From positions 1 to 33,642 of the forward strand of contig CAMDZX010000001.1 in the NCBI GenBank assembly GCA_945910925.1: 33,642 bases of DNA, written 5' to 3'. The stretch comes from an uncultured bacterium. Lineage in GTDB: Bacteria; Cyanobacteriota; Vampirovibrionia; Gastranaerophilales; Gastranaerophilaceae. The translations under genes and the position numbers were made by a program. Under the pieces are notes generated by a model, which did not search any database, had not been told where the DNA came from, and saw nothing but the letters and a program-made list of their open reading frames with translations. Of this stretch, positions 153 to 25,767 are shown in pieces (within the stretch, counting starts at the first letter, position 1; the number at the start of each line of letters is the position of its first letter).

Positions 153-3100
153 TCACGTGAAGATTTTGAAGGTCTTGTCAACGTTATCCTTAATAATCTG
201 TTTTATGGAATCAAGTTCTGTTGATATTGCATCCTGTTCGGCTTCAAGTTTATTCATCCTGATATCTATTACTTTTTCTTTTGCAGTGATATCAGCTTTT
301 TCTGATTCGTATTTTGAGAGCGCAACATTCTGTGCATCGGTATCATAAACTTGGAACACCTTGCTGACGTTCATTGCAAGTTTGGTTGCGTAGTTGAAAT
401 CTTGACCGTCAAGCGTATTGACTTCTGTGATAAAAAGCATATTATTTTGAAGTTTCGCATTGAGATAATTCTTGCTATCTTCCTTTTTGGTAGGATTGTT
501 TACGTTTTCATCATAAACCCAACCGTTTTCTGCAATCATCTTGAATATCGCATCAAAGTAATCCATACCACGAGATTCAAGACTTGCATAATATGTTTGT
601 AATTGTGTTTCTTTTTCTTGAATTTCTGCTTTTAAATTATTAATCAATGTTGTTAATTGACCTTTTATATCAGAAGGATCTGTTGGAAGAATATATGAAG
701 TCTTTGCATACGTAGACTTGCCTATAGTATTAGCTAGACCATAGACATTATTTCCTGCCTTAATATACGCTTCTAGTTGTTCATTACCATCACCTTCAGT
801 GAGTTTTTTTAAAGTTTCATTAGTTGAATCTTTTTCTGAGTTTAGCACCAATTCTGCGGATACAAAATTTCCACTCTCATCATACGTTGCTTTATATAAT
901 TTATAAAGTCCGTCTGTATCAACACCGTCATTATATTTAAATGTAACATTAATTTCTGAACACTTACCATTTTTATATGTAGTTTCTTTTGTGGCAGTAC
1001 CATTAGAAAGCGCATATGTTTCTATAGTAGTTGCAACTACGTTATATTGGGAAGTACACTTTACTCTTTTTGTTAGTGCAATTAGTATATCATACATATC
1101 TTCCTCTTGACCTTCTAAGGTTAAATCTTCATATAAATCTTTATATCTTTCATCCGTATCAAGCCCATTAGTTGTTAAATAGTCTATCAACTCTGTTCTG
1201 CCGTCCGGGTTTTGTGAATACTTAACGAGTAAGTTAAAAGAGTCTTCATTATATCCTGTTAAGTCATCTATATCGTCATGATTATCATCAACAAAATTTT
1301 GTTCATAAGCCAAACCTACAGTTGCTGGTGAAGGGTAGTTATCATAATTAACATCAAATTCTGTAATATAAGTTCCACCTTTACCATTTGTGAACACTTG
1401 TTCAGTATTAGTTTTATTGAGCAAACCTAATTCGGCATCTGTCATGAAATCAACAGTTTCACCACTTCCATTTTGACCTATGGTTTGTGCATATAATTTG
1501 TTGTTCGAATACCAGTCAATAACAGGAACTCCTGTGCCATCTATCATAGATTCAATATATGCAGAATAAAACGTCATAAATGTATCCATTACAGAAGATA
1601 TACTTACTGCAAATTCTTGATTGTCTGGCTTCGTATCTCTATAAGTAGATACACCATTTATAGAAGAAGCATTATCCTTAGATTTATATCCTTCATCATC
1701 ACCTCTACCCCTACCCCAGCTTGAAGTTAGAAGAGTATTATCATCTTTTCCGGATGCAATTGCAGAATCAACATTCTCTTTAATTGCTTCATAAGAGCCG
1801 GACGCATGTCCATTCGTTGCTTTCAGTAACTCTTTGTTATTCCCAAATTTTACCATTGTCATATAATATGCGAAATCAGCAGCTTCTACATTATATGGTA
1901 GTCCCTGATTTGCGGTCGAAACAGCTTGCTTAAAGCTGTTGACGAGAGGATCCAATGCTCCCATATCACCACTTATTCGATCATTAGATTTTGTTTTATA
2001 TGATTGTATAGTAACAAAATACTTTTTACCATCTTGTCCGTTATATAAATCAGACCAGGACAATTCTGTTGAATCTTTATAAGATTTTTTACCGTCAGTA
2101 CCAAGGTATACCCCCACAGCATTGCTATCATTCTCCTGATAAGTATCACTATATAGTTTATTAGCAGAAACGGTACCTAATTTAGATAATAATGTTTCTA
2201 AATACAAACCTGTATTATTAACATTATCCGTAGTATTATCAGTACCTCCCGGGTTGTTAAGCTTTAACAACGAAGCTATCCTTTGTGTAATACCACTTGT
2301 TATAGATTTCTCTTCATCATATTTATATGCTTCATTTGTTACTTTTGAAAATTCGGAATTATTATCTCCTGAAAGATTTACTTTAATAGGAGTATTTAAA
2401 TATAGTTCAAATTCTTTAAGATATTGTTGTGCAAGATTATAATTTCCATACAAAGATGCATCATCCAAGATTAAACTACCTTGAGAATACTTCATCACTC
2501 CGAAAGCGTCAGTATCAAATTCCTCGCCTTGAATTCCTATCACATCTTTATTTTTAGCTGTTTCTACATAATAATTTTGTGAGTCATATGTAGTGGGATT
2601 TTTACCGTATAAACTATCATATATGTTCTGTACAATTGTTTTATCTTCTTCTCTTATTAAGCCTAATTTAGACATTAAATCATATCTTATCTTATTTTTA
2701 TAATTGTAATCATTATAATTAGAGACAACCTTATACTCATAAGCATCAGACATTTTTGTGCCTGCAGTTCCGGGAATGATGTTATCACCTACCAGAACGC
2801 TGTCGTTATTAGGATCTAGACCGAAAACATTTCCTGTCTTATTGTATGTTGTATTACCATTATCATCGATACCTGAATATGCCGAAATCAATGTTGCAAG
2901 TTGTCTGTATGAAACTCCCGTATCTTTACCATCAAAAACAATATTGTTGTCATCAACAACAACTCTGCCTTGAGCATCTGTAACTATGTACGGAAGGGTT
3001 GCGTTTAACTCATTCGGTTTCATAAGAGAATCATAATCAATATCATTATAAGTAACACCCGAATCGCCTGACCATTTGAGAACTTTTTGATTCATCGCAT

Positions 3101-3239
3101 TATTGTATTCTGCTGCAACACGATTCATATCTCTTGATAATGCAGTCTTTCTGTTAGAAAGAGTCATCAAGTTCAAACCGATAGTATTTTTTCGGTTTTG
3201 TAAAGATAAAAATCTTACTTGTGATGCTGCCATTCCCAT
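153..3239 (-). CDS. Large uncharacterised protein (1028 aa) with helical heptad N- and C-termini flanking an ~850-aa N/D/Y/G/T-rich centre; no signal peptide
   Basis: Uninterrupted 3.1-kb ORF. The N-terminus (MGMAASQVRFLSLQNRKNTIGLNLMTLSNRKTALSRDMNRVAAEYNNAMNQ) and C-terminus (KLEAEQDAISTELDSIKQIIKDNVDKTFKIFT) look amphipathic-helical. An AGGGA SD-like element lies about 11 nt upstream. I recognise no catalytic or named family motif. Confidence 0.8.
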   Translation of the reverse strand: MGMAASQVRFLSLQNRKNTIGLNLMTLSNRKTALSRDMNRVAAEYNNAMNQKVLKWSGDSGVTYNDIDYDSLMKPNELNATLPYIVTDAQGRVVVDDNNIVFDGKDTGVSYRQLATLISAYSGIDDNGNTTYNKTGNVFGLDPNNDSVLVGDNIIPGTAGTKMSDAYEYKVVSNYNDYNYKNKIRYDLMSKLGLIREEDKTIVQNIYDSLYGKNPTTYDSQNYYVETAKNKDVIGIQGEEFDTDAFGVMKYSQGSLILDDASLYGNYNLAQQYLKEFELYLNTPIKVNLSGDNNSEFSKVTNEAYKYDEEKSITSGITQRIASLLKLNNPGGTDNTTDNVNNTGLYLETLLSKLGTVSANKLYSDTYQENDSNAVGVYLGTDGKKSYKDSTELSWSDLYNGQDGKKYFVTIQSYKTKSNDRISGDMGALDPLVNSFKQAVSTANQGLPYNVEAADFAYYMTMVKFGNNKELLKATNGHASGSYEAIKENVDSAIASGKDDNTLLTSSWGRGRGDDEGYKSKDNASSINGVSTYRDTKPDNQEFAVSISSVMDTFMTFYSAYIESMIDGTGVPVIDWYSNNKLYAQTIGQNGSGETVDFMTDAELGLLNKTNTEQVFTNGKGGTYITEFDVNYDNYPSPATVGLAYEQNFVDDNHDDIDDLTGYNEDSFNLLVKYSQNPDGRTELIDYLTTNGLDTDERYKDLYEDLTLEGQEEDMYDILIALTKRVKCTSQYNVVATTIETYALSNGTATKETTYKNGKCSEINVTFKYNDGVDTDGLYKLYKATYDESGNFVSAELVLNSEKDSTNETLKKLTEGDGNEQLEAYIKAGNNVYGLANTIGKSTYAKTSYILPTDPSDIKGQLTTLINNLKAEIQEKETQLQTYYASLESRGMDYFDAIFKMIAENGWVYDENVNNPTKKEDSKNYLNAKLQNNMLFITEVNTLDGQDFNYATKLAMNVSKVFQVYDTDAQNVALSKYESEKADITAKEKVIDIRMNKLEAEQDAISTELDSIKQIIKDNVDKTFKIFT

Positions 3240-3272
3240 TGTTACGACGTTCCCTTTTTTCTTGTTTCCTAT

Positions 3273-3296
3273 GTAACATAATTGTTATTATGTTAC
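3273..3296. promoter_or_regulatory. Perfect 10-bp inverted repeat GTAACATAAT-TGTT-ATTATGTTAC in the leader of the 1028-aa gene
   Basis: Read directly from the sequence. It lies 34-57 nt upstream of the ATG at 3239, between a TATAAT-like box (3331-3336, minus strand) and the SD. It could be an operator or a 5-prime-UTR hairpin; the function is unknown. Confidence 0.4.
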
Positions 3297-3342
3297 GTAT
3301 AACGGCATTTTTTTTTAAAACATTAGCAAAATTATAATAATA

Positions 3343-3358
3343 TTTACAAAACTTTACA
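3343..3358 (-). promoter_or_regulatory. Direct-repeat motif TGTAAAGTTTTGTAAA upstream of the 1028-aa gene
   Basis: On the minus strand the region reads AATGTAAAGTTTTGTAAATATTATTATAAT. Two TGTAAA hexamers lie 10 bp apart. The first is 16 nt upstream of a TATAAT box. A near-identical 16-mer occurs upstream of the neighbouring 213-aa gene (4316-4331). Confidence 0.35.
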
Positions 3359-3433
3359 TTATTTAGAGTTTTAGAATTATCACAAAAATAGAAGCCGTTA
3401 ATGTGTTGTATAACTGGAAAGAAACAGATGATT

Positions 3434-3513
3434 AGTTACTTTGATACATAGTAACTTTCTAATACACCCCCTTTGTCCTTCGGACATTTCCCCCTTGTCG
3501 GGGGCAAAGGGTG
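3434..3513. other. Cluster of intergenic hairpins: a 7-bp hairpin (3434-3456) plus a GC-rich nested element (3465-3513)
   Basis: AGTTACT and AGTAACT form a stem with a 9-nt loop. The outer stem is CACCC(CC)TTTG with CAAAGGGTG. It encloses two small hairpins, TCC-TTC-GGA and CCCCC-TTGTC-GGGGG. This is very GC-rich relative to its surroundings. I recognise no known RNA family. Confidence 0.4.
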
Positions 3514-3539
3514 AATGTTAGTATTGTTTTTATTTATAC

Positions 3540-3573
3540 AAAAAAGAGGATGACTATTGTCACCCTCTTTTTT
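3540..3573 (-). terminator. Rho-independent terminator of the 213-aa gene
   Basis: The minus-strand RNA reads AAAAAAGAGGGUGAC-AAUA-GUCAUCCUCUUUUUU. It has a 9-bp GC-containing stem (one G-U pair) extended by A/U pairs, followed by a U-run. It sits 17 nt after the stop at 3590. Confidence 0.7.
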
Positions 3574-3589
3574 GTATATTCAATTATAA

Positions 3590-4231
3590 TTATGCATTCA
3601 AGCCGTAATGTGCCATTGAGTCTTTTGCAACTTGAGCAAGTCTTTGTTTTGCTGCTTGTGCTCTTTCGTCTGCCATTGTTAATCGAGTATCGTTTACTGC
3701 AATTTCTGCCTGCATATCTGCATCCTTTTCTGCTATCGGAGCAGTTTGTGCATCTTCTTTTGCTTCCAAATCTTCAAGATCTGCTTCTTTCAATTGTTCA
3801 AGAATTGTATTTAATGCAGCTTGAACTTGTGCAATAATTGCTGCTTGTTGAGATAGTATGGATGATTTTTGTTCTGTTTGTGTAGTTGCAGCTGTTGATG
3901 GATTTATGTTACTAATATCCGCTCCTGCTGCTGCAGCAATCCCTTGAATAAGTTGATTTGAAATACCATTTGCTGCAAATAGACTTCCAATAGATACTTC
4001 ATTTAGCATATTAGTTGCACTCAATCTATTGAGAGATGCTGTTAACTGACTGCTCAACCTTGTATATTTAGATTCTAATTGTGTTTTCTTTTTGCTGAAT
4101 AATTTTTCGATGTTACCAATACGCTTCGTATATAAGTCGTGCATATTGTTAAGACGGACACCTTTGTGTTCAAGCACGGTCTTCTTTTGAATCGCCCGTT
4201 GATATTCAAATTGCATTAATAGTAAGCCCAT
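3590..4231 (-). CDS. Small coiled-coil protein (213 aa), a possible minimal relative of the adjacent 1028-aa protein
   Basis: Intact ORF with GAGG 10 nt upstream of the ATG and its own terminator. It has a helical N-terminus (MGLLLMQFEYQRAIQKKTVLEHKGVRLNNMHDLYTKRIGNIEKLF), an A/Q/S/T-rich middle and a charged helical C-terminus (EKDADMQAEIAVNDTRLTMADERAQAAKQRLAQVAKDSMAHYGLNA). Confidence 0.7.
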   Translation of the reverse strand: MGLLLMQFEYQRAIQKKTVLEHKGVRLNNMHDLYTKRIGNIEKLFSKKKTQLESKYTRLSSQLTASLNRLSATNMLNEVSIGSLFAANGISNQLIQGIAAAAGADISNINPSTAATTQTEQKSSILSQQAAIIAQVQAALNTILEQLKEADLEDLEAKEDAQTAPIAEKDADMQAEIAVNDTRLTMADERAQAAKQRLAQVAKDSMAHYGLNA

Positions 4232-4315
4232 TTGCTTTGAACCTCGTTTTAAGTATCCTCGTATTTATATAAAGTTTTTTTGTTGTTAAAAATTGCCTTT
4301 TTCGTTGCATTTTTG

Positions 4316-4331
4316 TTTACATTTCTTTACA
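4316..4331 (-). promoter_or_regulatory. Direct-repeat motif TGTAAAGAAATGTAAA upstream of the 213-aa gene
   Basis: The minus strand reads TGTAAAGAAATGTAAACAAAAATGCAACG, about 85 nt upstream of the ATG at 4231. It is 13/16 identical to the motif at 3343-3358, and all differences fall in the 3-nt spacer. A third degenerate copy (TGCAAC) follows one helical turn later. Confidence 0.35.
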
Positions 4332-4433
4332 CATTGAGAAAAATCAAGCTATAAGCGGATTTTAGACAGGTAAAAATATAACATTATTGTTAAGAAATGT
4401 TACAAAACGACCTAAAAAGTAATAATTTTATTA

Positions 4434-7262
4434 CTAAGCCAAACTGTTAAGATAATCTTTATTCGCAGCCAGAGTATCCTTTGATGCCACAATTGAATAC
4501 ACAGGTTTATTATTAAATACATAATTTGCAGCCTTTTGGATATCTTCTTTTGTTATCGAATCAATTGCATTATACATTTCGTTAATATGGTTGATGCCAT
4601 AAGGCGTATTTTGTCCTTCTGCGAGAGTATTTGCATTATTTCTTTGCCCGTAAGACATATTTCTTAATGTATCTTTTAGTTCTTTTTTGGCAACATCGAC
4701 TTCTTTATCTTCGAATTCACCGTTTTTCATCTTATTAATCTGCCTATTGAAGCCATTGATTGATTTTTGAACATTTTCGTACGTTCTTTCTCCCGTATCA
4801 GGATTATCTGTTGTTGTTTTTATATTACAACTGATAAAAGCATTATCACCTGAATCATCATAATCAGCCCAAACCGCATATGCTAACTTTTCTTTTTCTC
4901 TCAAGTTGTTAAACAGACCCGTTGTATCACCGTTTGACAATATAGATTTCATAAGAGCAAATGTTGTTTTATCCTTGGCGTTACCGCTTACCTTAAAATT
5001 GTACGCCTGAATTATTTGAGCCTGTGCCTTTGGTGCTTCTTTTGTAATAACCACAGACTTATCTATCGGTTTATATAAATTGTGTAATTTTGGAGCATCG
5101 GATTTTGCAGCAGGCATTTGTGCAAATAACGGTAGTACGGCATTTTGAACACTTCTGTCACCCATTGGTGCAGCAACGCTGACTGTTGCTCTGCTATTTG
5201 ACATGATTTGATTATAGTAATCCTTCACATCGTTTATTGTAATATTATCAATATTATCAAGCACTTCTTTTACAGTATACCCCTGAGTTGTATCAGGAAA
5301 GAAAGTTTTTAATACTCCTTCTTCAGGTGTTGGTTCAATATGTTCTAAAAACTCTTTAAGCAGTCCTTTTTGTTCTTCTAAAATATCTTCGTCAAAGCAA
5401 GGGTTCATCAATTGCTCCTGACTGATTTTAACAAAATTTTCAATATTTTTAGATGGCATATCTCCGGTAATTTGAATAGTGCCATTATCAACATTTATCG
5501 ACTGAGAAAGATTATATTTATCCAAATATTCTACGAATTGGTCATAATCCTTATTTGCTGTCTTTTCTTTCAGCATCCTGTTTAACAGAATTTCTACGCC
5601 CGGTTTTCCTTTTACAGGTTCAAGCGGAGTATATGTAATTATTGATTTCGCGTTTGTATTTTGCGGAGTATCAATAAATGCAATATCATAATTATTATTT
5701 AACTTATATTCTGTTATTTTTGACGTATCAAGCGGGAGTTGTTTATGCACATTGCCTTTAAACGCAACCTTAGAAGTATTTGCCTTCTCGTAGTTTTGTT
5801 TTAAAGTTTCAGCACTCGCAGAAGCAGGATGTACAACGACAATTGATGCTTTTTGTGGATTCATATAATTATGAACAACATCTTCAACATCTTGTATAGT
5901 CAAAGAATCAATAATTTTATCCTGATTTGTAATATCTGAAATATTAAAGGATAATGAAGAACTGCCTATAATTTTATTTAATCTGTCAGGATTTTCATAT
6001 TTGTCTTGATTTTGTGCCTTTATATAGTTTTTAACGACTTGCAGTTCTTCTTCATCTTTAATCTTAAAATTTTGTAATTCTGTGAATATTGTTTTTAGAG
6101 CTTTTTCAGAATTATTTTCTGTTGTATCAATATCAAACCCGATTGCAACACCGTCGGTAGGAACGGTACTTACCTTTTGTACTCCCGGATTCAGCTCTGT
6201 ACCTACTTCTTTTAATTTCATCCTAAGTCTTGAATTTGATTTGTAGTACAAGAAGTTCAATGCAGCTTCAAGTGTTATTTGACCTTTTATATCGTTATTG
6301 GCTGGTCCGTTAAACGCGATACTTGCACTCGTTGAATGTGCCTTTTCTGATATTAAATCCCGTCTTACGGCTTTATCAATCGGAGTAAGTTTTTCAAACC
6401 TTCTGTCAGGATTTTGTTTGTTTTCTCCTCTAAAATGTTTTGCAACAAGATTGATTGCATCATCAGGGTTTACATCTCCGGTAATAACAGTAACCATATT
6501 TGCAGGATAATAATTATTTTTGTAATAATCCATTACTTTTTTTCTGTCTATATTTTGAATATTATCAACCCGCCCTGCAACCAATTCTTCAGATGTACTT
6601 TGAATATTATATAAATTTTTTACAGCAAGATTACTAGCCTTTTCGGACATCACATCACTATACATATTTATTTCCTGACAAACAGGTCCGTGTTCTTTTT
6701 CTACCATGCTATCGGACATTTCAAGATTATTCATCATAGCTGCCTGCATTGCAATAGCGGTTTCTAAGTCCTCTTTTTCAAACTGAGGGACTCCTATTGT
6801 GTAATTTGTTTCGGCAAAACCTGTCGAAGCGTTGGTATATCCTCCCATTTCTGCAACTTTTCTGAATACATCTCCGACGCCGAGCTTCATATATCCGTCT
6901 GTACCAAAAGTTCCATTGAAAGCCATATGCTCGTTATAATGACTTATTCCGCGTTCATCATCTTTTTCGTTCATTGAACCTGTGTTTACATACGTATTAA
7001 CGAACGTCTTAGGCGATTTCATCGGTGCAATCATTACCCGTTGCCCGTTTGCGAGTTTATAACAATGAACTTCCTGACCGTTTACAAACTTTTCTACTCC
7101 GAGTTTTGTATAAGTTTGAGGGACTTTCACATTATAATCTGTTGCCACATTCGACGGTAAGGAATTTATTTCAGGCGAACTATTCCCTGATACAGATTGT
7201 GGAGAGTTTTTCTTGTATAAGTTTATTATATTAGTATTTGAAGAATTAATTCCTTGAACCAT
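4434..7262 (-). CDS. M16 (pitrilysin/insulinase) family zinc peptidase, fused two-half form (942 aa)
   Basis: Inverted zincin motif HYNEH (H108-x-x-E111-H112, nt 6927-6941). Downstream lies GGYTNASTGFAETNYT, typical of active M16 halves. The second half carries LFNNLREKEKLAYAV. The first ~70 aa are polar with no hydrophobic signal peptide. Confidence 0.85.
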   Translation of the reverse strand: MVQGINSSNTNIINLYKKNSPQSVSGNSSPEINSLPSNVATDYNVKVPQTYTKLGVEKFVNGQEVHCYKLANGQRVMIAPMKSPKTFVNTYVNTGSMNEKDDERGISHYNEHMAFNGTFGTDGYMKLGVGDVFRKVAEMGGYTNASTGFAETNYTIGVPQFEKEDLETAIAMQAAMMNNLEMSDSMVEKEHGPVCQEINMYSDVMSEKASNLAVKNLYNIQSTSEELVAGRVDNIQNIDRKKVMDYYKNNYYPANMVTVITGDVNPDDAINLVAKHFRGENKQNPDRRFEKLTPIDKAVRRDLISEKAHSTSASIAFNGPANNDIKGQITLEAALNFLYYKSNSRLRMKLKEVGTELNPGVQKVSTVPTDGVAIGFDIDTTENNSEKALKTIFTELQNFKIKDEEELQVVKNYIKAQNQDKYENPDRLNKIIGSSSLSFNISDITNQDKIIDSLTIQDVEDVVHNYMNPQKASIVVVHPASASAETLKQNYEKANTSKVAFKGNVHKQLPLDTSKITEYKLNNNYDIAFIDTPQNTNAKSIITYTPLEPVKGKPGVEILLNRMLKEKTANKDYDQFVEYLDKYNLSQSINVDNGTIQITGDMPSKNIENFVKISQEQLMNPCFDEDILEEQKGLLKEFLEHIEPTPEEGVLKTFFPDTTQGYTVKEVLDNIDNITINDVKDYYNQIMSNSRATVSVAAPMGDRSVQNAVLPLFAQMPAAKSDAPKLHNLYKPIDKSVVITKEAPKAQAQIIQAYNFKVSGNAKDKTTFALMKSILSNGDTTGLFNNLREKEKLAYAVWADYDDSGDNAFISCNIKTTTDNPDTGERTYENVQKSINGFNRQINKMKNGEFEDKEVDVAKKELKDTLRNMSYGQRNNANTLAEGQNTPYGINHINEMYNAIDSITKEDIQKAANYVFNNKPVYSIVASKDTLAANKDYLNSLA

Positions 7263-7395
7263 ATTTATATAAAACCTGATTTTTTTAAAAATTTGCTAAT
7301 AATATTAACGATTGTAACAATTATAATAAAAAATCTGATTTTTAGTAAATTTTAATTAAAAAAAATACTTTATATACAAGTAGGTTAATACTCGT

Positions 7396-8241
7396 ATGAA
7401 TAATTTTGAAGGTTTAGTCAATACTTACCCCATAAATGTCGTACGCCCTTACGATTCTATTAAGGGTGGTCGTGCCTTATTGCCAAATTCACAGGATAGG
7501 GCATCACTGAATTCCGGTCTTGATAAATATTTGGATAACACGACTGTACGTAATATCGTGTATTCAAATCCGGAGATAACGCGACTGCTTGCAGAAAAAG
7601 GTATTCCTTTGAAAATAAATACGGAAGGCTTCAAAAAGAATGTCTATAATCATTCAATTGACACCAGAAATACCGCTGTCGGGATTTATAACCATTTGCC
7701 GCCTAATATAAAACAACAGGCTAATCTTAAAGATATTGCAGATGGCGCACTATTGCATGATTATGGAAAAATTTTAATTCCTGAAAACATTTTAATGAAA
7801 AATAACAGGTTATCACCAAAAGAAGAAGATATTATGCATCTTCATTCGACGTTAAGCTATGAAATGTTAAAGAATCAGGGAATTAATGATAATGTTTTAA
7901 AAATAGTAAAATATCACCATCAAAACCCATTAGGAAGCGGTTATCCGGATATCGGAAATAATCAGGGAGTTGATTTGAATACACAAATCGTATCTCTTGC
8001 AGACAAATATTCGGCGCTCAGAGAAAAACGAAGTTATAAACGACAGATGTCAGAAAATGAGGCACTAAATATTTTACACAACGAAATTAATAAAGGAGTG
8101 AATTCTGATGTATATAATGCTCTTGATAGCTATGTTATGTCTAAACAGCCAAATACAAAGAACACAGTTACATTGTCAAACTATCTTGATAGAAAGAATG
8201 CCTCACCGCAAATAAATCGTGATTCGGCATTTTATGCCTAA
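7396..8241 (+). CDS. Stand-alone HD-GYP-type HD-domain protein with a ~100-aa N-terminal extension of unknown function
   Basis: Motifs NHSIDT, LLHDYGK (H121-D122), HLHS, YHHQNPLGSGYP (HHQ in place of HHE, and PLGSGYP) and LADKY. These match the order of HD-GYP metal ligands. Confidence 0.75.
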   Translation: MNNFEGLVNTYPINVVRPYDSIKGGRALLPNSQDRASLNSGLDKYLDNTTVRNIVYSNPEITRLLAEKGIPLKINTEGFKKNVYNHSIDTRNTAVGIYNHLPPNIKQQANLKDIADGALLHDYGKILIPENILMKNNRLSPKEEDIMHLHSTLSYEMLKNQGINDNVLKIVKYHHQNPLGSGYPDIGNNQGVDLNTQIVSLADKYSALREKRSYKRQMSENEALNILHNEINKGVNSDVYNALDSYVMSKQPNTKNTVTLSNYLDRKNASPQINRDSAFYA

Positions 8242-8531
8242 TTTTATAAATTATATCCTGCAAACCACTAAATAATAATCCGTTAAATTATTTTCTGCCT
8301 TCATTTATCAGAGATAGAAGCAGTTATTTGAACATAGACTATCACAAAAAGAAAGCCTTGCAAGTTGTGCAAGACTCAAAAATATACATTTACCCCACCA
8401 ATTTTATATCATACATAAAAAAATAAGTCAACAGCTTTTTTGTCTATATCCATGACTCAAAAATAATTAAATATAATTATTTTTTTTATCTCATTTCCAT
8501 TCTATAATCATATTTGATAGAGAGGTGGATT

Positions 8532-9767
8532 ATGAATGTTAATGATGCGTTGGTTATGATTTTAGCAGGCGGTGAAGGTAAAAGACTCTATCCGCTTACA
8601 AAAGATAGAGCAAAGCCTGCAGTACCGTTTGGCGGACGTTACAGAATTATTGATTTTGTACTTAACAACTTCGTAAACTCCGGATTTAACAGAATAAAAG
8701 TGCTTACCCAATACAAATCAGATTCTCTCAACAAACACCTTGTCAGAGGCTGGGCATTATCACCTTTCTGGAATCAATTTATAGAACTTGTTCCGGCTCA
8801 AATGAGAACAGGCGGAACTTGGTATCAGGGAACTGCTGATGCGGTTTATCAAAATATTCTTCATATTGTGGATGAAGACCCGAAGTATGTATGTGTATTC
8901 GGTGGCGATCACATATACAAGATGGATGTTTCACGCATGCTCAAGTTCCATAAAAAAAATAATGCGGCGTTAACAATTTCCGCAATTCCTATTCCGATTG
9001 AACAAGCATCAGAGTTCGGGATTATGGAGGTTGATGAGAATTGGAGGTTAATCAACTTTGTCGAAAAACCTCAAACCCCACCAAGACCAATGCCTGATAA
9101 CCCTAATATGTGTTTGGCATCAATGGGAAATTACATATTCGACAGGAACATTCTTGTTGAAGCACTGAATCAGGATGCAGAAATCGAACAATCTCATCAC
9201 GATTTTGGGAAAGATGTTATTCCAATGCTTTTAAATCAAGGTAAAAATATTTGTGTATACAATTTTAGCGAAAATAAATTTGCAGGCATGTCGCCACGTG
9301 AAAAGGGTTACTGGAGAGATGTAGGATGCATTGATGCATACTGGCAGGCAAACATGGATTTATTGGCATATGACCCTGAATTAAATCTATATTCAAAAGA
9401 GTGGCCATTAAGGACATTCAATTATAATTATCCGCCTGCTAAATTCATATGGAAAGAAGAAAACAGAGTCGGTATGGCAACAGACTCAATGATTTCCGAA
9501 GGATGTATTGTTTCAGGCGGTATTCTGTCACGTTGCATACTGTCGCCAAAAGTTAAGATTAACAGTTATTCAACAGTTACGGAATCCATCCTGATGGAGA
9601 ATGTTACAATAGGACGTCATTCCGAAATCAGGCGCGCGATAATCGATAAGAACGTTGATATCCCTGAATATACCAGAATAGGTTTTGACAGGGCAGAGGA
9701 TGAAAGACGCGGTTTCTACGTATCAGAAGGCGGAATAACGGTAGTTCCGAAAAACGCAAAATTATAA
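8532..9767 (+). CDS. glgC: Glucose-1-phosphate adenylyltransferase
   Basis: Contains LAGGEGKRLYPLTKDRAKPAVPFGGRYRIIDFVLNNFVNSG plus a C-terminal left-handed beta-helix region, and is the full length expected for GlgC. I prefer the ATG at 8532, preceded by GAGGTGG, over the TTG at 8514 in the ORF track. Confidence 0.9.
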   Translation: MNVNDALVMILAGGEGKRLYPLTKDRAKPAVPFGGRYRIIDFVLNNFVNSGFNRIKVLTQYKSDSLNKHLVRGWALSPFWNQFIELVPAQMRTGGTWYQGTADAVYQNILHIVDEDPKYVCVFGGDHIYKMDVSRMLKFHKKNNAALTISAIPIPIEQASEFGIMEVDENWRLINFVEKPQTPPRPMPDNPNMCLASMGNYIFDRNILVEALNQDAEIEQSHHDFGKDVIPMLLNQGKNICVYNFSENKFAGMSPREKGYWRDVGCIDAYWQANMDLLAYDPELNLYSKEWPLRTFNYNYPPAKFIWKEENRVGMATDSMISEGCIVSGGILSRCILSPKVKINSYSTVTESILMENVTIGRHSEIRRAIIDKNVDIPEYTRIGFDRAEDERRGFYVSEGGITVVPKNAKL

Positions 9768-12630: not shown

Positions 12631-14058
12631 ATGATTAATAAAATAAAACAATTTTATAATGAACATCCCGAAAGATTTTATCTTATTCTTTTGGGAATTT
12701 TTGCGTTTATCTTTTTGGCTGCAGGCATGTGGTATTATCCGCTTGTGGATGTCGATGAAACAAGATATGCCGTTATGTCAAGAGATTTAATCGGGCATAA
12801 TTGGAATTTCTTGATGCTTAACGGAGTGCCGTTTATAGAAAAACCTCCGCTTTATTTTTGGCTGACAGCGTTATCCATAAAACTATTCGGATTTCATGAA
12901 TGGGCAATAAGAGTTCCTACTTTGATTTTGTCAGTTATTACCGTTTATTTTACATATTACGTCGGAAAAGTTGTTAAAAGCCCTAAATTCGGATTCTATG
13001 CCGCATCAATTCTTATGATTAACGCATATTTTGTTATGCTTACACGTGTAGCAATTATAGATATGGTATTCACAGCTTTTTTAACATGGACTATATACTG
13101 TGGATTTTTAACTGATTTTGTAAGAGAAAAATATAAAAAATACTTGTGGTTTGCTTTTTATGTTTGTATGTCTTTTGCCTTTCTTGCTAAAGGTCTGCTG
13201 GCAATTGTATTTCCTTGTATGATAATCGGACTTCACAGAATATTAACAAAATCTGTAAAAGAGATTTTCAGACCCGTTAATATAATTCCCGGAGTATTGG
13301 TATTTCTGCTAATAAACTTACCTTGGCACTTTGCAATGTATAAACAGTATGGATATGAATTTATCTGGGTTTATTTTATTTTACATCACTTTGAAAGACT
13401 TGTTGATGCGGATTCTCTCGGGAAAACACGACCTTTCTTATACTTTATACCCGTGTTTTTCATAGGGTTCCTGCCTTGGTCAATAAACTTTATAGGCAGT
13501 ATTGTTGATTTCTTCAAAAATAAATTGTTCAAGAATCCTGTGATGCTGTTTTTTTGCTTGTATTTTGTTGTAATTTTTGGAATTTTTAGTTTTGCAAGCG
13601 GTAAATTACCAACTTATGTTTTGCCTGCTGTGCCACCGGCAGCGTTTTTAACTGCAAATTTTATATATGACAGAGATAAGAATTGGTTTAAAATACCTAT
13701 ATATTTTGGTTTCGTTGGTGTAATAGTTGCTGTGGTATTACTAAAAACAGTTGTATACACAGGCGGAATGAGTGAGTTGGTTGAATTTTCAAAACAAGCA
13801 CAGGCTTCCGAATATCACTTGATTACGTACGACATGCCTGTTAAGCCTTCAATTTTTCTTCATTATATAAAAGATAATGCGGATTTAATATTAGAAGATA
13901 ACTTATCAGAACTAAAAAAGGCAGTCACAAAAAATCCTAAATCTATGATTATTGTAAAAAGAAAAAATATGACTAATTCAACAGCAAAAATATTTATAAA
14001 AGATAACTTTTCTCTTATACACACAAGTAAGAAATACGAACTTTACAGAAATAATTAG
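12631..14058 (+). CDS. GT-C membrane glycosyltransferase (ArnT/PMT_2-like)
   Basis: Polytopic membrane protein. It has a DVDETRYAVMSRDL first-loop motif (DExRYA, as in the ArnT family) and a soluble C-terminal domain. Its start codon immediately follows the GT2 stop. Confidence 0.75.
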   Translation: MINKIKQFYNEHPERFYLILLGIFAFIFLAAGMWYYPLVDVDETRYAVMSRDLIGHNWNFLMLNGVPFIEKPPLYFWLTALSIKLFGFHEWAIRVPTLILSVITVYFTYYVGKVVKSPKFGFYAASILMINAYFVMLTRVAIIDMVFTAFLTWTIYCGFLTDFVREKYKKYLWFAFYVCMSFAFLAKGLLAIVFPCMIIGLHRILTKSVKEIFRPVNIIPGVLVFLLINLPWHFAMYKQYGYEFIWVYFILHHFERLVDADSLGKTRPFLYFIPVFFIGFLPWSINFIGSIVDFFKNKLFKNPVMLFFCLYFVVIFGIFSFASGKLPTYVLPAVPPAAFLTANFIYDRDKNWFKIPIYFGFVGVIVAVVLLKTVVYTGGMSELVEFSKQAQASEYHLITYDMPVKPSIFLHYIKDNADLILEDNLSELKKAVTKNPKSMIIVKRKNMTNSTAKIFIKDNFSLIHTSKKYELYRNN

Positions 14059-14936
14059 AAATTACTACGTAATTTTTTTAGTAATTTTTCACTATACGGA
14101 GAGCCTTCTTTTGCAAAATCATAATAATAATTGTGTACATTAGATGAAGGTATTGTTAAAATATTGTACATACGTTCCTTAATATTATTTGGTATAATTT
14201 GTTTGTCCGTCCCCACACACTTATCGCCTGAGTATAGAAATATTGTATTAACAGGTGTATCATTATTTGTTGTCATTATTAAGACAGGTTCACCATTTTT
14301 TTGAGTATGATAAGTTAAATTTTTACAATCTTTACCTTTTTCATATATAGTTACATTATACTTTTTAGAATCAACTTTTGTTCGTCTGTAACATTTAACA
14401 AGATATTTTTCTTCGTTATTAAGAATTTCAAGATTATTTAAAAGATTATCACCCTTATAGGCTTTCATATCTACAAGAATATATTTCCCATTAACCATTT
14501 GCTCTTTTTTAGAAATAATACGTTGTATTATCTTCGCACCATCAAGAACTACTGTTTCACGATATTTAAATTTACCTTCATATCTGTCAAAATTAATTCT
14601 AACTTTTCCATTTTTTAAACGTACTTGCGACTGAGAAGTTAATTTATTTCCAATAAGTGGCTGATATTTACGCAATTTGTCCAACGAACCTGCTATATTA
14701 CCCTTACGGCGAATTAAAAATTCAGGCAAAAAAAGAATAGCCGCAAATATTACTCCTGAAGCAATTGTAGTTATAAAGTTATTTTTAATAGCACTATCAT
14801 TACTTCTTTTTTTCTCAAATACATCTTCTTTACGTTCTGTATTTAATGGTTGATTTACTACAGCTTGAGGTTTTACCGTTTGATTTTTTTCTGCTGCCCT
14901 TAATATAAAACTGTTACTGTATCCATCAATTGTCAT
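14055..14936 (-). CDS. Hypothetical single-pass membrane protein (293 aa)
   Basis: ORF with one TM segment (FITTIASGVIFAAILFLPEFLI) and a K/N-rich C-terminal domain; I recognise no motif. I prefer the ATG at 14936, preceded by AAGGTGA, over the GTG at 14954. Its stop codon overlaps the stop of the convergent GT-C gene. Confidence 0.55.
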   Translation of the reverse strand: MTIDGYSNSFILRAAEKNQTVKPQAVVNQPLNTERKEDVFEKKRSNDSAIKNNFITTIASGVIFAAILFLPEFLIRRKGNIAGSLDKLRKYQPLIGNKLTSQSQVRLKNGKVRINFDRYEGKFKYRETVVLDGAKIIQRIISKKEQMVNGKYILVDMKAYKGDNLLNNLEILNNEEKYLVKCYRRTKVDSKKYNVTIYEKGKDCKNLTYHTQKNGEPVLIMTTNNDTPVNTIFLYSGDKCVGTDKQIIPNNIKERMYNILTIPSSNVHNYYYDFAKEGSPYSEKLLKKLRSNF

Positions 14937-15078
14937 AAATTCACCTTGTTCCACTTATTATAAAAAACTAAAAAATATTTTTTGCCGATAAATAAACAAT
15001 AATTTACAATTTAGTTTGAAAATTCACGTGTTTATGATATTATCAGTAAAAAAGTATGACATATTTAAAGGAGTTTTT

Positions 15079-15636
15079 ATGATTTCTGTAAACGATCTTA
15101 AGACAGGTTTGACACTACAATTAGATAACGGGCTTTGGTCTGTTGTAGAATTTCTACACGTAAAGCCGGGTAAAGGTGCGGCTTTTGTACGTTCAAAACT
15201 AAAAAACGTAGAAACAGGACAAGTTGTTGAAAAAACATTCCGTGCCGGTGAAAAAGTTGCAAAAGCTACGCTCGATAGACGCGAAATGCAATATTTGTAC
15301 AAAGAAGGTAACGATTTCGTTATGATGGATATGGAATCTTATGAACAAATGCCTGTTCCTGAAGCACATATCGGTGACGGGGTAAAATACCTGAAAGAAA
15401 ATATGAATGTTCAAGTTCTTTTCCACGATGGCAAAATTATCGGACTTGATATTCCTGCTCACGTTGAGTTGGAAGTCGTTGATACACCACCATCAGAAAA
15501 AGGTAACACATCTCAAGGCGGTACTAAACCTGCAAAACTTGAAACAGGTGCAGTTGTAAACGTTCCATTCTTTATCGCAAATGGAGATATTATCAGAGTC
15601 GATACAAGATCAAACGAATATCTTGATCGTTGTTAG
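15079..15636 (+). CDS. efp: Elongation factor P
   Basis: Opens MISVNDLKTGLTLQLDNGLWSVVEFLHVKPGKGAAFVRSKLKN, with the conserved KPGKG loop. It is 185 aa. The ATG at 15079 is preceded by AAAGGAG; the upstream extension in the ORF track is unlikely. Confidence 0.92.
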   Translation: MISVNDLKTGLTLQLDNGLWSVVEFLHVKPGKGAAFVRSKLKNVETGQVVEKTFRAGEKVAKATLDRREMQYLYKEGNDFVMMDMESYEQMPVPEAHIGDGVKYLKENMNVQVLFHDGKIIGLDIPAHVELEVVDTPPSEKGNTSQGGTKPAKLETGAVVNVPFFIANGDIIRVDTRSNEYLDRC

Positions 15637-19536: not shown

Positions 19537-22500
19537 TTATTCATCAATACGACTGACTCCTAAATATCCGGAACTGTTTTTACCGGCATTCGAGAGTAAT
19601 TGGTTACTATATTCCTGAAATTCATCATATTTTTTATTAAATTTTTCTCTTTCTGCAAGAGCAGGTGAATATTCAGGAATATTAAGGCTATTTACTATAC
19701 TATAACTGTTATTAATATATTTAAGCGGTTCTTGTTTCGAAATTAAATCTTCATTAACCATTCTTCCTACTTTACTGTTAGCCTGCGTTATAAATTCCAA
19801 TAGAAGTACATTCTTAGGAGTTCCCGGAGTCTGAGAAATTATTTTCTTCACCTCATCGAGAGTTTTTAAGTAAATCTTAACGGATTTTTTATCATCCATT
19901 TTTTGTGTTTTTTCAATAATATTTTTCTTTGCAATATTGATTTTCTTTATATACTGCTTATCAGAAATTGTATCATCTTGTGCAATATTATCAATTTCTT
20001 CTTTTACGATTGTTGAAAGATTATTTGTTGTTCCAAGAATTTTTACAACATCATCAGTGATTTTTTTAGCATTATCAAAATCGACAAGTTCATTTTGCGC
20101 CTTTAAGTATTTATCAGCGAGTCCGAGTTTATCAATAAATATTATTGCCGTTGACTTGTCGTCATTCCCGGATAGGGAACCAACAATATAATCTACGACT
20201 TTATTATCATCCATTGTCAGAATTGCTCCTGTATCTTTATCTTGCAATTCAGTTTTGATATCTTTGAAATTACTTGCGACGAGCGGAGCATTTCCTGTAG
20301 CAACCGCACTCATTAAGAGTTCTTGCATTTCAACCAATTGTGCACAAACAATCAGAGAACCTATATTTTCGGTTTTTGTAGTTAATTCTGTCAGAGAGTC
20401 AGAAGATGTTTTAGGGTCAGAAGAATGTATAGGACTATCTTTTGAATATAATATCAAACAACTGTTAAGTAACTCGACCGGTGACATTAAATTGTGATAT
20501 CTTCTATAATCTTTGTAAAATTTCTCTTTAGCTTCATAAGCCCGCTGAGGATTATATTTTGATTGTTTAGCCGTAATGGCATTGTTTACGGTATTTTTAA
20601 CTTTATTTGTTACAGCTTGTCTGTATTCAGGTTTGATATTGCCATACACAAATTCCTGTGTATCATCTTGAATTTTGGCTATAACCATATTAAAATCATC
20701 TTTAAAATATTCTTTATCTTCACCTTCTAAATTTTGAATAGCATTTGCATCAGCAGAAAGTTGAAGAATATTATTTTCCAGTTTATTCATATAAGTTCTT
20801 TTAGTCATACTGAAAGATTTTTTAGGAATTGAATATTTTTTGAATATATTATTCAAATTATCCATTTCCACAGTTAAATCTAAGGTTGGATTATTATCTT
20901 TCATTTCCTCTCTTATCCAATTGTTGGCATCATTTTTAACCTTATTACGATACTTTTCTTGTATGGTTGAATTTATAATTGTATCCAGTGTTAAGTTTAA
21001 AAGTTTATTATTTTCAACAATTTGTTTTTTCATTTCATCTTCAGGATTTATTTTCTTTAATACATCCATTTCGGTAATCAATCCTGAAGCTGCATTTTTG
21101 TAATCTGCACCTGTTGCATTTTCATCAAGCTCAAGAATATTTTGAGCTGACATTAATGATTTTTTTATGGAAGAATCATCCATTTTTGATGACAGAAACA
21201 TACCTGCAAGTATATTTATTTTATTTGCAGATTTCGTTGACGGTATTTTATCATCAGGGATTAAGTTAATTTCTTTTATCAATTTCTCTGTAAGGTGTGT
21301 TGTTTTGATAGAATCCTTCATTGCATTAATATTTGCAATATAATCGATTACACTTTCATCTATACTTTGAAGTTTTTTATCAAAATCTTTTTCTCCAATA
21401 TAATCAACCTTAGGGTAGGCAGGAAAATACCCTCCTGCTTTTATATTTGCATCTTTATACTTATTAAACATTTTATCGTATGTTAACGTTATAAATGAGT
21501 TTGAAAGCTCACTATACAACTCATCAAATGTACGATTCTGAGTATAAATTATACCCTGGTTATGCTTATATAACTTATTGTATTTATATGCAGGTTTTGT
21601 AGGAGAAAAATCGTAATCATTAAAGACTTCTTCTTGATAAATACTGTTCTTAACTAAATTATTAATTTGTTTATCCGCACCTTTATACCTTTTAAGTATA
21701 TCAAAACCTGAACAATTTTTAATTCCGATATCTTCGTCTTTTAAATCTGATGTTTCTTTATTGAATTCCTCAGTTGTCATATCTTGAAGTCTTCTGTATA
21801 TTTTTACAAAATCTGCATTTGTTTCCGGATTGTATTTTTTATCAATATAATTAGCAATTGCGGTAAATTTTGTAGACTTATTATTGACATCATCTTCATT
21901 TATATAAAGAGCATCTTCAAGACTGTTAGTCAGATTTTCTCTAATTTCTTGTTTGGCTAATCGAGCATTGTCCGAATCAGGAATAACTGAATCAAATTTT
22001 TTTAATGTTTTATTAACCATAAATCCTATTGTATTTTTCAGACTGCCGTCAAAATCTTTTTTCTCATCTTTTGAATACATTGCCACATTTTTAACAATTG
22101 CAGCTTTTTGTTTTTCATCAATTTTTATACCATATTTATTCAGCGCATTATCAATAATTGGTATAATTTGATTAGTCTTAGAATCTAGAGTGTATGAATA
22201 TAGGATTTCCGGTTCTTTTGCAAAAGAATAATTAAAATAACTTTTGGCAATTTTATTTCTGGTTTTATATGATTTCCCTAACTCTTTAACATTTTTTACT
22301 TTTGATAGAGTTTTCCATTCACTATCATCAGGGTATGATGCCTGAAATGCTGCTTTTTCACATATAACTTTTACATAGTTATCATCAGGGAGCTTCTCAT
22401 AATCCTCCTGTGAATCTATACCCTTATGAAAAGGGGTAGTATATAAAGCTTCATTAAAAGATTTAAGTTTCTTATTGTAATTATTTACACTTGTTTGATT

Positions 22501-25500: not shown

Positions 25501-25767
25501 TTTAAGTTTTTCTTTCCAATTATTTTGCGGTTCTTTTCCTAAATCAATTGAGGTTCCATATTTCAAATTGTCAGCGACATCAAGTAAAAATTTGACATTT
25601 GATTCCCCTGATTCTTTTGATAAATTATCAATAGCATTATTTATTCTTGTCTTATTATTTTCCGTAAGAGAATAATTATTATCTTGTTTTAGTTGTTGAA
25701 CTGCATTTCTATCTTCTCTGCGACTTTTAAATGCAGGATTTATTGAGTGTAAAAAATTCAAGTTCAT
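19537..25767 (-). CDS. Giant protein (2076 aa) with putative split papain-like (clan CA, C1-like) cysteine peptidase motifs; the rest is K/N/D/E-rich and helical
   Basis: Uninterrupted 6.2-kb ORF with AAAAGGA upstream. It carries NQKHHGMCAAIS (Q226, C232, TGT at nt 25072-25074). It also carries RMGGHAQYIAEISSINGKDVLYHDNTWG...GGETGYI (H938 at nt 22954-22956, N958, W960). There is no signal peptide and no TM segment. Confidence 0.8.
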   Translation of the reverse strand: MNLNFLHSINPAFKSRREDRNAVQQLKQDNNYSLTENNKTRINNAIDNLSKESGESNVKFLLDVADNLKYGTSIDLGKEPQNNWKEKLKTAAEKSIAASNPIVQEKLSPEFKRVFKENKPLSEDEKSILESRKNILAQLDKTQLEDEKDPNIKRVESNLDYFIASSATPTKQKKYILNRLDYFLSPDYEINPELKDKKTLIFAEMINDLVVDTKDSKIPNTKAINQKHHGMCAAISITRKLTSYEYKPDYVDSIMSELDATPHVMVYDKTRLGEGVKIPVDKVQVDFKDAQNKGYRIVDASTTQWMNIANMYGADNKAEAVYIPFDAENFDVLRDNSIMNPIDDKNFADKHRYYQGLLLAKEEIGKAKASQIRTGMKRDDIRRNHEKDLEHLNKINNLLISNISQVIPAATEKEVHSTFNSVRALYSKSSSDIANIKNDKAKYHFIPNEEKTMKENKVKAFIIDSNKDKVDTETLDKNISEITSLIEEAATLEDKIHPYSSQGKPISKARMLYNAAAAYRFANLTALNDKDYQHDKMIKYDVPDTETLLVSNIDKTINHIKKTGDERYIKHFSDVYGINPNKQEVLTELTNKRNEVNSSITTFLDSMYHGLGLGSRKDVLLSEVQNIKSGLKDGNKAIWTGSAYTLGMDSTNKTKIKKEYEKFEQILSNNPNEKQYTEIFNKLGHKDQLQACADMFGIVADAVINPDDEVKQNILKNYKTANGLPENYSTEETLALLQEWGNLFNSVSENITNIRSSMTIIDNQHNILNCPETHYEIIKRMEKQGDIIPTNELKLLQNRFNRIDKIRSEDEFSGRQGKISDSSLYKLTKQEKETLKHIDKSINKMYSETNKELAFVLSDIRQPLEEHARKSGIESGEYWTCQTGSGLHTPQEIKILEMITDNRYRVTNNLDKAVSKIKTGEHSGISGSSVFHNRMGGHAQYIAEISSINGKDVLYHDNTWGASEKDNVWVDSEGVTHTDYSDNRGGETGYITNDKYRNGNYVDDLRYKSGYISASSPENKQLKKLVGQEYEHKFPIMSDVIITGNDGKTKSIALEIKDSIFHSNACHYNHLIRIASDMTSEEIKAAIIKNQTSVNNYNKKLKSFNEALYTTPFHKGIDSQEDYEKLPDDNYVKVICEKAAFQASYPDDSEWKTLSKVKNVKELGKSYKTRNKIAKSYFNYSFAKEPEILYSYTLDSKTNQIIPIIDNALNKYGIKIDEKQKAAIVKNVAMYSKDEKKDFDGSLKNTIGFMVNKTLKKFDSVIPDSDNARLAKQEIRENLTNSLEDALYINEDDVNNKSTKFTAIANYIDKKYNPETNADFVKIYRRLQDMTTEEFNKETSDLKDEDIGIKNCSGFDILKRYKGADKQINNLVKNSIYQEEVFNDYDFSPTKPAYKYNKLYKHNQGIIYTQNRTFDELYSELSNSFITLTYDKMFNKYKDANIKAGGYFPAYPKVDYIGEKDFDKKLQSIDESVIDYIANINAMKDSIKTTHLTEKLIKEINLIPDDKIPSTKSANKINILAGMFLSSKMDDSSIKKSLMSAQNILELDENATGADYKNAASGLITEMDVLKKINPEDEMKKQIVENNKLLNLTLDTIINSTIQEKYRNKVKNDANNWIREEMKDNNPTLDLTVEMDNLNNIFKKYSIPKKSFSMTKRTYMNKLENNILQLSADANAIQNLEGEDKEYFKDDFNMVIAKIQDDTQEFVYGNIKPEYRQAVTNKVKNTVNNAITAKQSKYNPQRAYEAKEKFYKDYRRYHNLMSPVELLNSCLILYSKDSPIHSSDPKTSSDSLTELTTKTENIGSLIVCAQLVEMQELLMSAVATGNAPLVASNFKDIKTELQDKDTGAILTMDDNKVVDYIVGSLSGNDDKSTAIIFIDKLGLADKYLKAQNELVDFDNAKKITDDVVKILGTTNNLSTIVKEEIDNIAQDDTISDKQYIKKINIAKKNIIEKTQKMDDKKSVKIYLKTLDEVKKIISQTPGTPKNVLLLEFITQANSKVGRMVNEDLISKQEPLKYINNSYSIVNSLNIPEYSPALAEREKFNKKYDEFQEYSNQLLSNAGKNSSGYLGVSRIDE

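Follow-up and report, generated by a model that had tools for sequence, protein, structure and literature searches.

A lineage-restricted family of predicted hairpin proteins with a hypervariable insert in Gastranaerophilales

Positions 153 to 4231 of contig CAMDZX010000001.1, from an uncultured member of Gastranaerophilaceae (assembly GCA_945910925.1), encode two adjacent proteins of 1028 and 213 amino acids (aa), and the locus raises the question of whether the two are related and what kind of structure they might build. The window referred to below is the whole stretch of DNA that was analyzed, positions 1 to 33,642 of the forward strand, 33,642 nucleotides (nt) in length. An earlier note, made from the sequence alone, had likened both proteins to self-assembling filament subunits with helical ends and a variable middle and had proposed, as a hypothesis, that the large protein is the small scaffold with a long insertion. 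Both open reading frames (ORFs) are present as claimed, as are their MGM and MGL starts and their DKTFKIFT and DSMAHYGLNA ends. We are highly confident that the large protein belongs to a family whose conserved ends form a hairpin and whose middle is hypervariable. The two genes and the parts of the large protein are as follows:

153..3239, minus strand: gene for the 1028-aa large protein, a long-form member of the Melainabacteria "MGMAASQVR...TFKIF" hairpin family (ORF and homologs)
2865..3239, minus strand: N module of the large protein, aa 1 to 125, a long helix at 2-49 and then short strands (conservation, AlphaFold2 and direct coupling analysis [DCA])
615..2864, minus strand: hypervariable middle of the large protein, aa 126 to 875, T/Y/D/N/G rich, isoelectric point (pI) 4.4 (alignment, composition and the ratio of nonsynonymous to synonymous substitution rates [dN/dS])
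156..614, minus strand: C module of the large protein, aa 876 to 1028, with helices, three short strands, a 57-residue helix at 967-1023 and the ..TFKIFT tail (conservation, AlphaFold2 and DCA)
3590..4231, minus strand: gene for the 213-aa small protein, of a separate Gastranaerophilaceae coiled-coil family (MGLLLMQYEYQ...AHYGLS) (ORF and homologs)

The large protein has 78 close homologs of 880 to 1200 aa, which align with it at 60 to 75% identity across only about 20% of the query; those that are named all come from Gastranaerophilales or Melainabacteria metagenome-assembled genomes (MAGs). The N module is 46 to 86% identical to homologs per 25-aa block, the C module is 40 to 78% identical, and the middle, which is heavily gapped, is 6 to 25% identical. 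M1, G2, M3, A5 through L11, L13, Q14 and R16 are invariant in the large-family alignment. An exhaustive profile search of 1.84 billion representatives returned 2482 clusters at E ≤ 1e-3, of which 360 reached E ≤ 1e-30, the clusters being representatives clustered at 50% identity, and most of the 2482 are 440 to 530 aa long and match both the N and the C parts of the profile. The window protein scores 859 bits against the full family profile and contains every invariant residue. Nearly all members carry an N-terminal signature, MGM(A/S)ASQVR.L.L..R, and a C-terminal signature, ..N(I/V)(E/D)(R/K)(T/S)F(K/G)(I/T)F, and the window protein conforms to the motif of the family's C helix, ..YE.EK..I..KE..ID..M..LE.EQ.AI....(D/E)S.K....(D/E)N....TFKIF. 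When one genome per species was scanned, 79 loci were returned, and all of the organism-labeled ones were Gastranaerophilales, Melainabacteria or "Vampirovibrio" MAGs. A phage origin was considered and set aside, as no relatives were found among viral contigs, and literature searches turned up no published description. We conclude that the family is very large, restricted to this lineage and undescribed until now. The window allele itself is present as exact low-depth fragments in pig-gut metagenomes, and an exact 233-nt contig in a pig-gut metatranscriptome, at 1242-1474 inside the large gene, is weak evidence that the gene is transcribed.

Complete members that match both terminal profiles fall into sizes of 111, 198, 268-303, 351-401, 474-533, 586, 748 and 892-1195 aa. 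The 111-aa member consists of the N helix, a DPDNP turn and the C helix only, and a branch of 143 to 148 aa (MAIANLHETL...NIQEDFNYGLNG) joins the large family with an hhalign probability of 88.6%. Several size classes occur per MAG, such as 917, 911 and 296 aa in one case and 929, 928, 748 and 351 aa in another. Small and large versions thus co-occur in one genome, a point that the earlier note had proposed to survey, and they do so as paralogs within the large family: the genuine small scaffolds are the paralogs of 111, 143-148 and 198 aa, not the 213-aa neighbor. The class of about 495 aa contributes 58 of the genome-scan loci. It is alignable over its full length at 43 to 48% identity, and its setting is conserved, with a tetratricopeptide repeat (TPR) gene, the family gene, ffh, pth, a second TPR gene and a U32 peptidase gene. 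No conserved neighbors were found for the long class; an M16 peptidase gene occurs at three of its loci, about as often as expected by chance.

Some loci carry several members together. At L040 (4426-9941) and L045 (4429-9894), family members of 587, 111 and 488 aa form a cluster directly upstream of ffh, interleaved with a 91-aa protein and a 285-aa G/S/T-rich protein with helical ends. The 285-aa protein of L040 was considered as an analog of the small protein and rejected, for it has no profile relation to either family. The 213-aa and 152/163-aa genes next to the long-class genes of L028 and L029 were rejected likewise; from the appearance of their sequences, without a library scan, their products resemble a phosphatase of the HAD type and a regulator of the MarR type.

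The two conserved ends appear to belong together. AlphaFold2 modeled the window protein at a mean predicted local distance difference test score (pLDDT) of 66.8, with helices at 2-49 and 967-1023 and a middle of low-to-moderate confidence, and modeled a 496-aa member at a pLDDT of 80.2. In both models an N helix of about 45 residues leads into short strands, and short strands lead into a C helix of 57 to 61 residues. Mean-field DCA used 361 distinct full-length members (effective number of sequences, 168), each represented by its first 60 and last 80 residues. Of the top 25 N-C couplings, 16 lay on the antiparallel diagonal i + j = 66-80, where 19% were expected (P = 8e-7). These couplings start at N10 and residue 1009, extend to N44 and residue 976 and continue as strand 51-58 with residues 960-963. 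Because the couplings lie on an antiparallel diagonal, we conclude that the N and C ends form one module, predicted to be an antiparallel helical hairpin with a small sheet, and that the remainder of the protein is inserted at its tip. The inserted part ranges from the 5-residue turn of the 111-aa paralog to more than 1000 residues. The pairing of the N and C helices that the earlier note had suggested as a thing to look for is therefore borne out by DCA and AlphaFold2 for the large family only. Some couplings (C4-C41, C9-C46, C16-C52, N55-C56 and N59-C49) do not fit a single straight hairpin; they show a constant offset of about 36 residues, linking residues 952-964 to 989-1000 and 47-59 to 997-1004, and may reflect either contacts between subunits or an artifact of sequence relatedness.

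The evolution of the middle was followed in three pairs of syntenic alleles of the long class, for which identities were as follows:

L022/L033: flanking proteins 95% (two nearest genes) and 73 to 82% (three further out); middle 20 to 30%
L028/L029: flanking proteins 99 to 100%; middle 62 to 66%
L001/L019: flanking proteins 96 to 100%; middle with patches of 78 to 80%

In the three pairs the dN/dS of the middle was 0.17, 0.69 and 0.44, roughly 10 times that of the neighboring genes (0.01 to 0.07), and that of the termini was 0 to 0.23. Moreover, the synonymous divergence (dS) of the middle in L028/L029 was 0.85, which is 5 to 10 times that of the flanks and therefore indicates import of alleles by recombination. 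We conclude from these alignments that the long-class insert diverges much more rapidly than the genes around it, both by amino acid change and by the import of foreign alleles. Relative to the window background, the middle of the window protein is enriched 1.8-fold in T and in Y, is also enriched in D, N and G, has C, H and R at 0.15 to 0.3 times background, is depleted in P and M, and is acidic. A composition of this kind, acidic, with abundant T, Y, D, N and G and little C, H and R, is familiar from the variable domains of flagellins and from S-layer proteins. The hypervariable gene may also break assemblies, as the sequence of one related contig stops about 420 bp beyond the position at which it ceases to resemble the window.

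The 213-aa neighbor has its own family, with 39 homologs of 204 to 233 aa from the same order as those of the large protein, and its gene was single copy at every small-family locus examined. Residues 1 to 55 and 135 to 213 are conserved, a variable A/S/G/T-rich linker lies between them, and an invariant proline, P165, breaks the C-terminal part. The small protein is thus, we conclude, a conserved protein of the coiled-coil type whose linker is of low complexity. Conserved helical ends around a variable middle, as described in the earlier note, hold for each protein within its own set of homologs. That note was also right about the absence of a Sec signal, in that no hydrophobic, signal-like or transmembrane stretch was found in either protein (maximum Kyte-Doolittle 19-residue mean, 1.04). 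Searches of Pfam, NCBIfam, PHROGs and PDB sequences, with single sequences and with profiles, gave only noise for both window proteins and for the short members of the large family.

Are the two neighbors related to each other? In an ungapped comparison of the first 45 residues, exactly M1, G2, Q7, K17, L27 and N29 are identical, as had been claimed, and six identities are ordinary for such a comparison (P = 0.15 against shuffles). The BLOSUM62 score of the same residues, 19, is moderately unusual (P of about 0.001 by shuffling, and of 0.009 when the N termini of 702 unrelated proteins from related loci serve as the reference) and is not amplified by the family profiles. A relation was sought in seven ways: BLASTP, hhalign with whole families, hhalign with termini, a short-form profile, the 111- and 148-aa intermediates, an enlarged 148-aa family, and hidden Markov models (HMMs) with reversed decoys. 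BLASTP gave nothing in register and one off-register coiled-coil match (E = 0.17). The hhalign probability was 0.09% for the whole family alignments, 0.0 to 1.9% for the termini, which equals the coiled-coil baseline of the large family's N end against its own C end, and 1.5% for the short-form large-family profile against the small family. By way of the 148-aa branch it was 4 to 9%, and it was still 4% after that branch had been enlarged to 17 sequences through a metagenome scan. HMMs built from three large-family alignments gave small-family members 3 to 8 bits, no better than their own reversed sequences. Two likenesses at the other end are a hint of relationship, although unproven: hhalign places the C termini of the two families in register and without gaps (K-[ED]..I-[DQ]......[LN]-[ED]-T, then an aromatic residue 3 to 4 residues from the end), and the NYGLNG ending of the true 143- to 148-aa members is similar to the AHYGLS/NA ending of the small family.

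The DNA between the two genes contains two features:

3535..3578, minus strand: intrinsic terminator hairpin just 3′ of the small gene, with a 20-bp stem and a U run (folding)
3240..3534, minus strand: AT-rich intergenic region with the large gene's own promoter region (sequence and strain alignment)

The terminator, which a consensus terminator scan overlooked and folding reveals clearly, folds at -28.2 kcal/mol (z = -8.5; 0 of 200 shuffles folded equally well), and promoter-like hexamers lie upstream of the large gene at 3385-3358. In three related strains (L007, L008 and L009) the small protein is 98% identical and the M16 peptidase region is collinear; their alignment with the window extends only to 3532, 58 bp past the stop codon of the small gene, after which the sequences diverge. 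Elsewhere in Gastranaerophilaceae, small-family genes are flanked on one side by a 125-aa gene and on the other by an ABC ATPase gene, after which come recR and ybaB. Within 8 to 10 kb of the small-family loci of other genera no large-family gene was found, and no small-family gene was found within 6 kb of the large-family genes at any of the 79 loci. We conclude that the small gene is transcribed separately and lies beside the large gene only in this lineage.

Two repeat-like segments were observed in the vicinity of the small gene. A structured element of about 65 nt at 3450-3515 (minus strand), between the terminator and the large gene, has nested G/C-rich stems (-26 kcal/mol, z = -2.65) and a copy in a different flank of L007 (10630-10700). 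The depth of metagenome contigs over 3401-3600 is 5 to 10 times background, which suggests a multicopy repeat; the element has no Rfam match, and its exact 15-nt core was found in L007 only among the loci compared. Upstream of the small gene, contig depth over 4201-4400 is likewise 5 to 10 times higher in pig-gut and wastewater metagenomes, many metagenome contigs diverge at 4260-4302, and the region is probably a second dispersed repeat.

That the two proteins are paralogs, scaffold and scaffold plus insertion, which jointly build a filament, is close to refuted, and we give it very little weight. Both proteins begin with MG, so that removal of Met would expose an N-terminal Gly, and the unusual N-terminal score, the in-register C termini, the similar endings and the shared layout of conserved ends and variable middle all speak for it. 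Set against these are profile-profile probabilities that are low throughout (0.1 to 4%, and 0.1 to 2% for the proposed scaffold-plus-insertion relation itself), HMM scores at the level of reversed decoys, the -28-kcal/mol terminator between the genes, the end of strain homology just past the small gene and the separate genomic settings of the two families. The earlier note had staked the relationship on profile-level homology of the termini and on synteny of the two genes; the former is absent and the latter was seen at 0 of 79 loci, and paralogy is therefore not supported. We conclude that the 213-aa neighbor is in all likelihood unrelated to the large family.

The large family nonetheless resembles flagellins (FliC), the "giant" flagellins among them, in design. 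By DCA its conserved N and C termini pair as antiparallel helices, as those of flagellins do; in both, the middle forms an insertion at the tip and is variable in length and hypervariable among strains (a diversity that flagellins show at two levels; PMC7018530), there is no Sec signal, several paralogs occur per genome, and the protein is acidic with little Cys, His and Arg and much Thr, Asn and Gly. The flagellin-like design proposed earlier for both proteins is thus upheld for the large protein, by its alignment, the 111- to 1195-aa series, DCA and dN/dS, and not as something shared with its neighbor. One reading is that the family consists of very divergent flagellar axial proteins that leave the cell through the flagellar type III system and become part of the flagellum or attach to it. 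The graded series recalls the axial set (FliE, FlgB/C/F/G, FlgE, FlgK, FlgL and FliD, the rod, hook, junction and filament proteins) together with the needle, tip and translocator proteins of injectisomes (SctF, IpaD/SipD), which are likewise graded paralogs of about 100 to more than 500 aa with common terminal helices. Genomes with the large family encode ordinary flagellins and fliF, fliG, fliH and fliI, with flagellar genes 3 to 7 kb away at some loci and the flagellins often a few kilobases from the gene of the 495-aa class, and flagellin, FlgL and FlgE are among the weak structural matches. However, the flagellin, hook and pilin N-terminal signatures are absent, as the earlier note had said, and the motifs differ (MGMAASQVR.. 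and ..TFKIF in the large family; ..LSSG.RIN..DDAAG and ..LSLL(R/G) in flagellins). The Pfam models Flagellin_N (PF00669) and Flagellin_C (PF00700) did not match the window protein or 17 other members even at E ≤ 1-10, and Flg_bb_rod, Flg_bbr_C and FliD matched no member scanned. Against the lineage's own 281- to 296-aa flagellins hhalign gave 0.1 to 0.5%. Foldseek searches of the two AlphaFold2 models against PDB and BFVD gave E values of 0.7 to 1.2 and template modeling (TM) scores of ≤0.13 for flagellin filaments, and E of 0.15 to 1.2 and TM of ≤0.26 for the flagellar matches as a whole. Unlike flagellins, the conserved modules carry short strands beside the helices, and members go down to 111 aa. 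Canonical flagellins coexist with the family in these genomes, and no gene of any size class was found inside a flagellar operon among the loci examined. Finally, complete flagellar gene sets occur in only some Gastranaerophilales (PMC4040986), yet the 495-aa class makes up most of the loci from the scan. A flagellar identity is therefore very unlikely in our judgment, and the evidence supports a flagellin-like design in a protein whose sequence and profile set it apart from flagellins and whose fold gives no significant match to theirs. In L072 (1115-2854) and L092 (1159-2961), ORFs of 579 to 600 aa a few kilobases upstream of the 495-aa class gene match the lineage-flagellin profile; flagellins of 281 to 296 aa occupy the same position in other MAGs.

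Two further readings place the family in other company. Its members could be surface or secreted monomers, adhesins or effectors, whose hairpin is a module for secretion, chaperone binding or anchoring, as in WXG100/LXG or type III substrates. Like the type VII substrates WXG100 and LXG, the family sets hairpins of about 100 aa beside large proteins with the same module and variable payloads, here differing among strains, and lacks a Sec signal; moreover, the first 9 residues and the C-terminal tail are nearly invariant, as would be expected of a recognized signal. With its helix-turn-helix hairpin, the 111-aa member has the size of a WXG100 or needle protein, and we take its DPDNP turn to resemble, as a lead only, the P-(S/D)-(D/N)-P turn of needle proteins; the tip proteins IpaD and SipD appear with FlgE and FlgL among weak Foldseek matches (E, 0.1 to 1; TM, <0.26). 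Against the monomer reading, the family is conserved at both ends, unlike WXG100/LXG substrates, which are conserved only at the N terminus, and unlike polymorphic toxins. No WXG or LXG motif or Pfam match was found in the family, only T7SS_signal at E = 0.85, and the needle-protein model (SctF/T3SS_needle_F) did not match the 111-aa member, for which Pfam gave only tropomyosin-type coiled-coil noise at E ≤ 10. No export apparatus, type VII system or immunity-like genes were found linked to large-family genes at the loci examined, the middle regions contain no toxin or enzyme domain, and to our knowledge no type VII system is known in this diderm lineage. We regard secreted monomers as quite unlikely. 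Alternatively, the family could be cytoplasmic, a coiled-coil scaffold or cytoskeletal element of the intermediate-filament-like or SMC-like kind whose middle binds varied partners. MukB/SMC arms, the chemoreceptor cytoplasmic domain and bacterial intermediate-filament-like proteins share its long antiparallel two-helix hairpin and supply the best of its weak fold matches; there is neither a signal peptide nor a secretion gene nearby, and the 495-aa class is a conserved single-locus gene amid ffh, pth, ftsJ-like and other housekeeping genes. However, the family lacks the ATPase heads and signaling domains of MukB, SMC and chemoreceptor proteins, the matches are not significant (E, 4e-3 to 3e-2; TM, 0.17 to 0.26), and a tip domain that is hypervariable among strains is a feature of the large family and not of those proteins. 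Hypervariability at strain level (dN/dS up to 0.69) with allele import, and a composition poor in C/H/R and rich in T/Y/N/D/G, would be unusual for a cytoplasmic scaffold, which we consider unlikely.

The explanation that we favor overall, at somewhat less than even confidence, is a family of hairpin scaffolds with a shared assembly or docking module and a displayed variable insert. The hairpin would be the common module by which paralogs join one another or a shared partner, the proteins would be exported by a route that needs no Sec signal, and the insert would be a displayed domain, exposed outside the cell and under pressure to vary, as in flagellins and surface fibers. Display of the insert outside the cell is an evenly balanced proposition; that the proteins form a polymer or fiber is conceivable and rather doubtful. 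Several points weigh against this explanation. The 495-aa class belongs to the syntenic core, next to ffh and pth, and is fully alignable, a pattern that a cytoplasmic protein with a housekeeping role could equally show, and no secretion or assembly genes were found to be conserved adjoining any size class at the loci examined. The best Foldseek matches are to antiparallel coiled coils of a generic kind (MukB elbow, E of 4e-3 and TM of 0.17 to 0.23; chemoreceptor, E of 2.6e-2), and the AlphaFold2 model of the window protein's middle is of low confidence. DCA does not distinguish contacts within a chain from those between chains, and its couplings may be inflated by sequence relatedness. The long charged heptad helices that the earlier note had seen at both C termini are only partly recovered: the large protein has long helices by AlphaFold2, but heptad (3.5-residue) periodicity was nonsignificant in all four terminal segments (P, 0.1 to 0.6; Fourier test), and in the small protein P165 interrupts the C-terminal part. 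Finally, assembly and export are proposals from sequence and models. A bolder form of the hairpin-scaffold explanation, which is unlikely when taken as a whole, is a new extracellular fiber or surface array in which size-graded paralogs of 111 to about 1200 aa co-assemble through the hairpin after non-Sec export and the long forms present strain-specific domains to host, phage or immune factors. Such an array would be an analog of the flagellar axial system of independent origin, and staggered subunits in contact with one another would account for the off-diagonal couplings, which are offset by about 35 residues.

Elsewhere in the window, an ORF of 2076 aa with abundant K, N, I and D (19537-25767, minus strand) has no Pfam or PHROG match, no internal repeats and no match to the terminal profiles of the hairpin family. 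The M16 peptidase next to the small gene (4434-7262, minus strand) is one ORF of 942 aa; in L007, a 94%-identical contig, the corresponding region (6853-9681) holds two ORFs of 435 and 476 aa. The halves of the peptidase resemble YfmH and YfmF, families associated with modification of elongation factor P, below curated cutoffs, and the efp gene is located some 8 kb from it, at 15016-15636. In L015 and L091, too, M16 genes of this kind are found close to members of the hairpin family, a proximity that is probably coincidental. Two further ORFs, of 299 aa (14055-14954, minus strand) and 237 aa (32849-33562, minus strand), have no Pfam match, the latter having one weak match to a PHROG of unknown function (E = 0.007).

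The Gastranaerophilales, uncultured gut bacteria related to the cyanobacteria, are widespread, and their cell surface is almost unstudied. The large, unannotated family described here evolves in a manner typical of exposed antigens or receptor-like structures. On a modest reading, it is a new domain family with a structural hypothesis. If the fiber or surface array is real, it would constitute a novel structural system whose flagellin-like design had evolved independently, and its variable domains would be candidates for interactions with host, phage and immune factors and could serve as strain markers in metagenomes.

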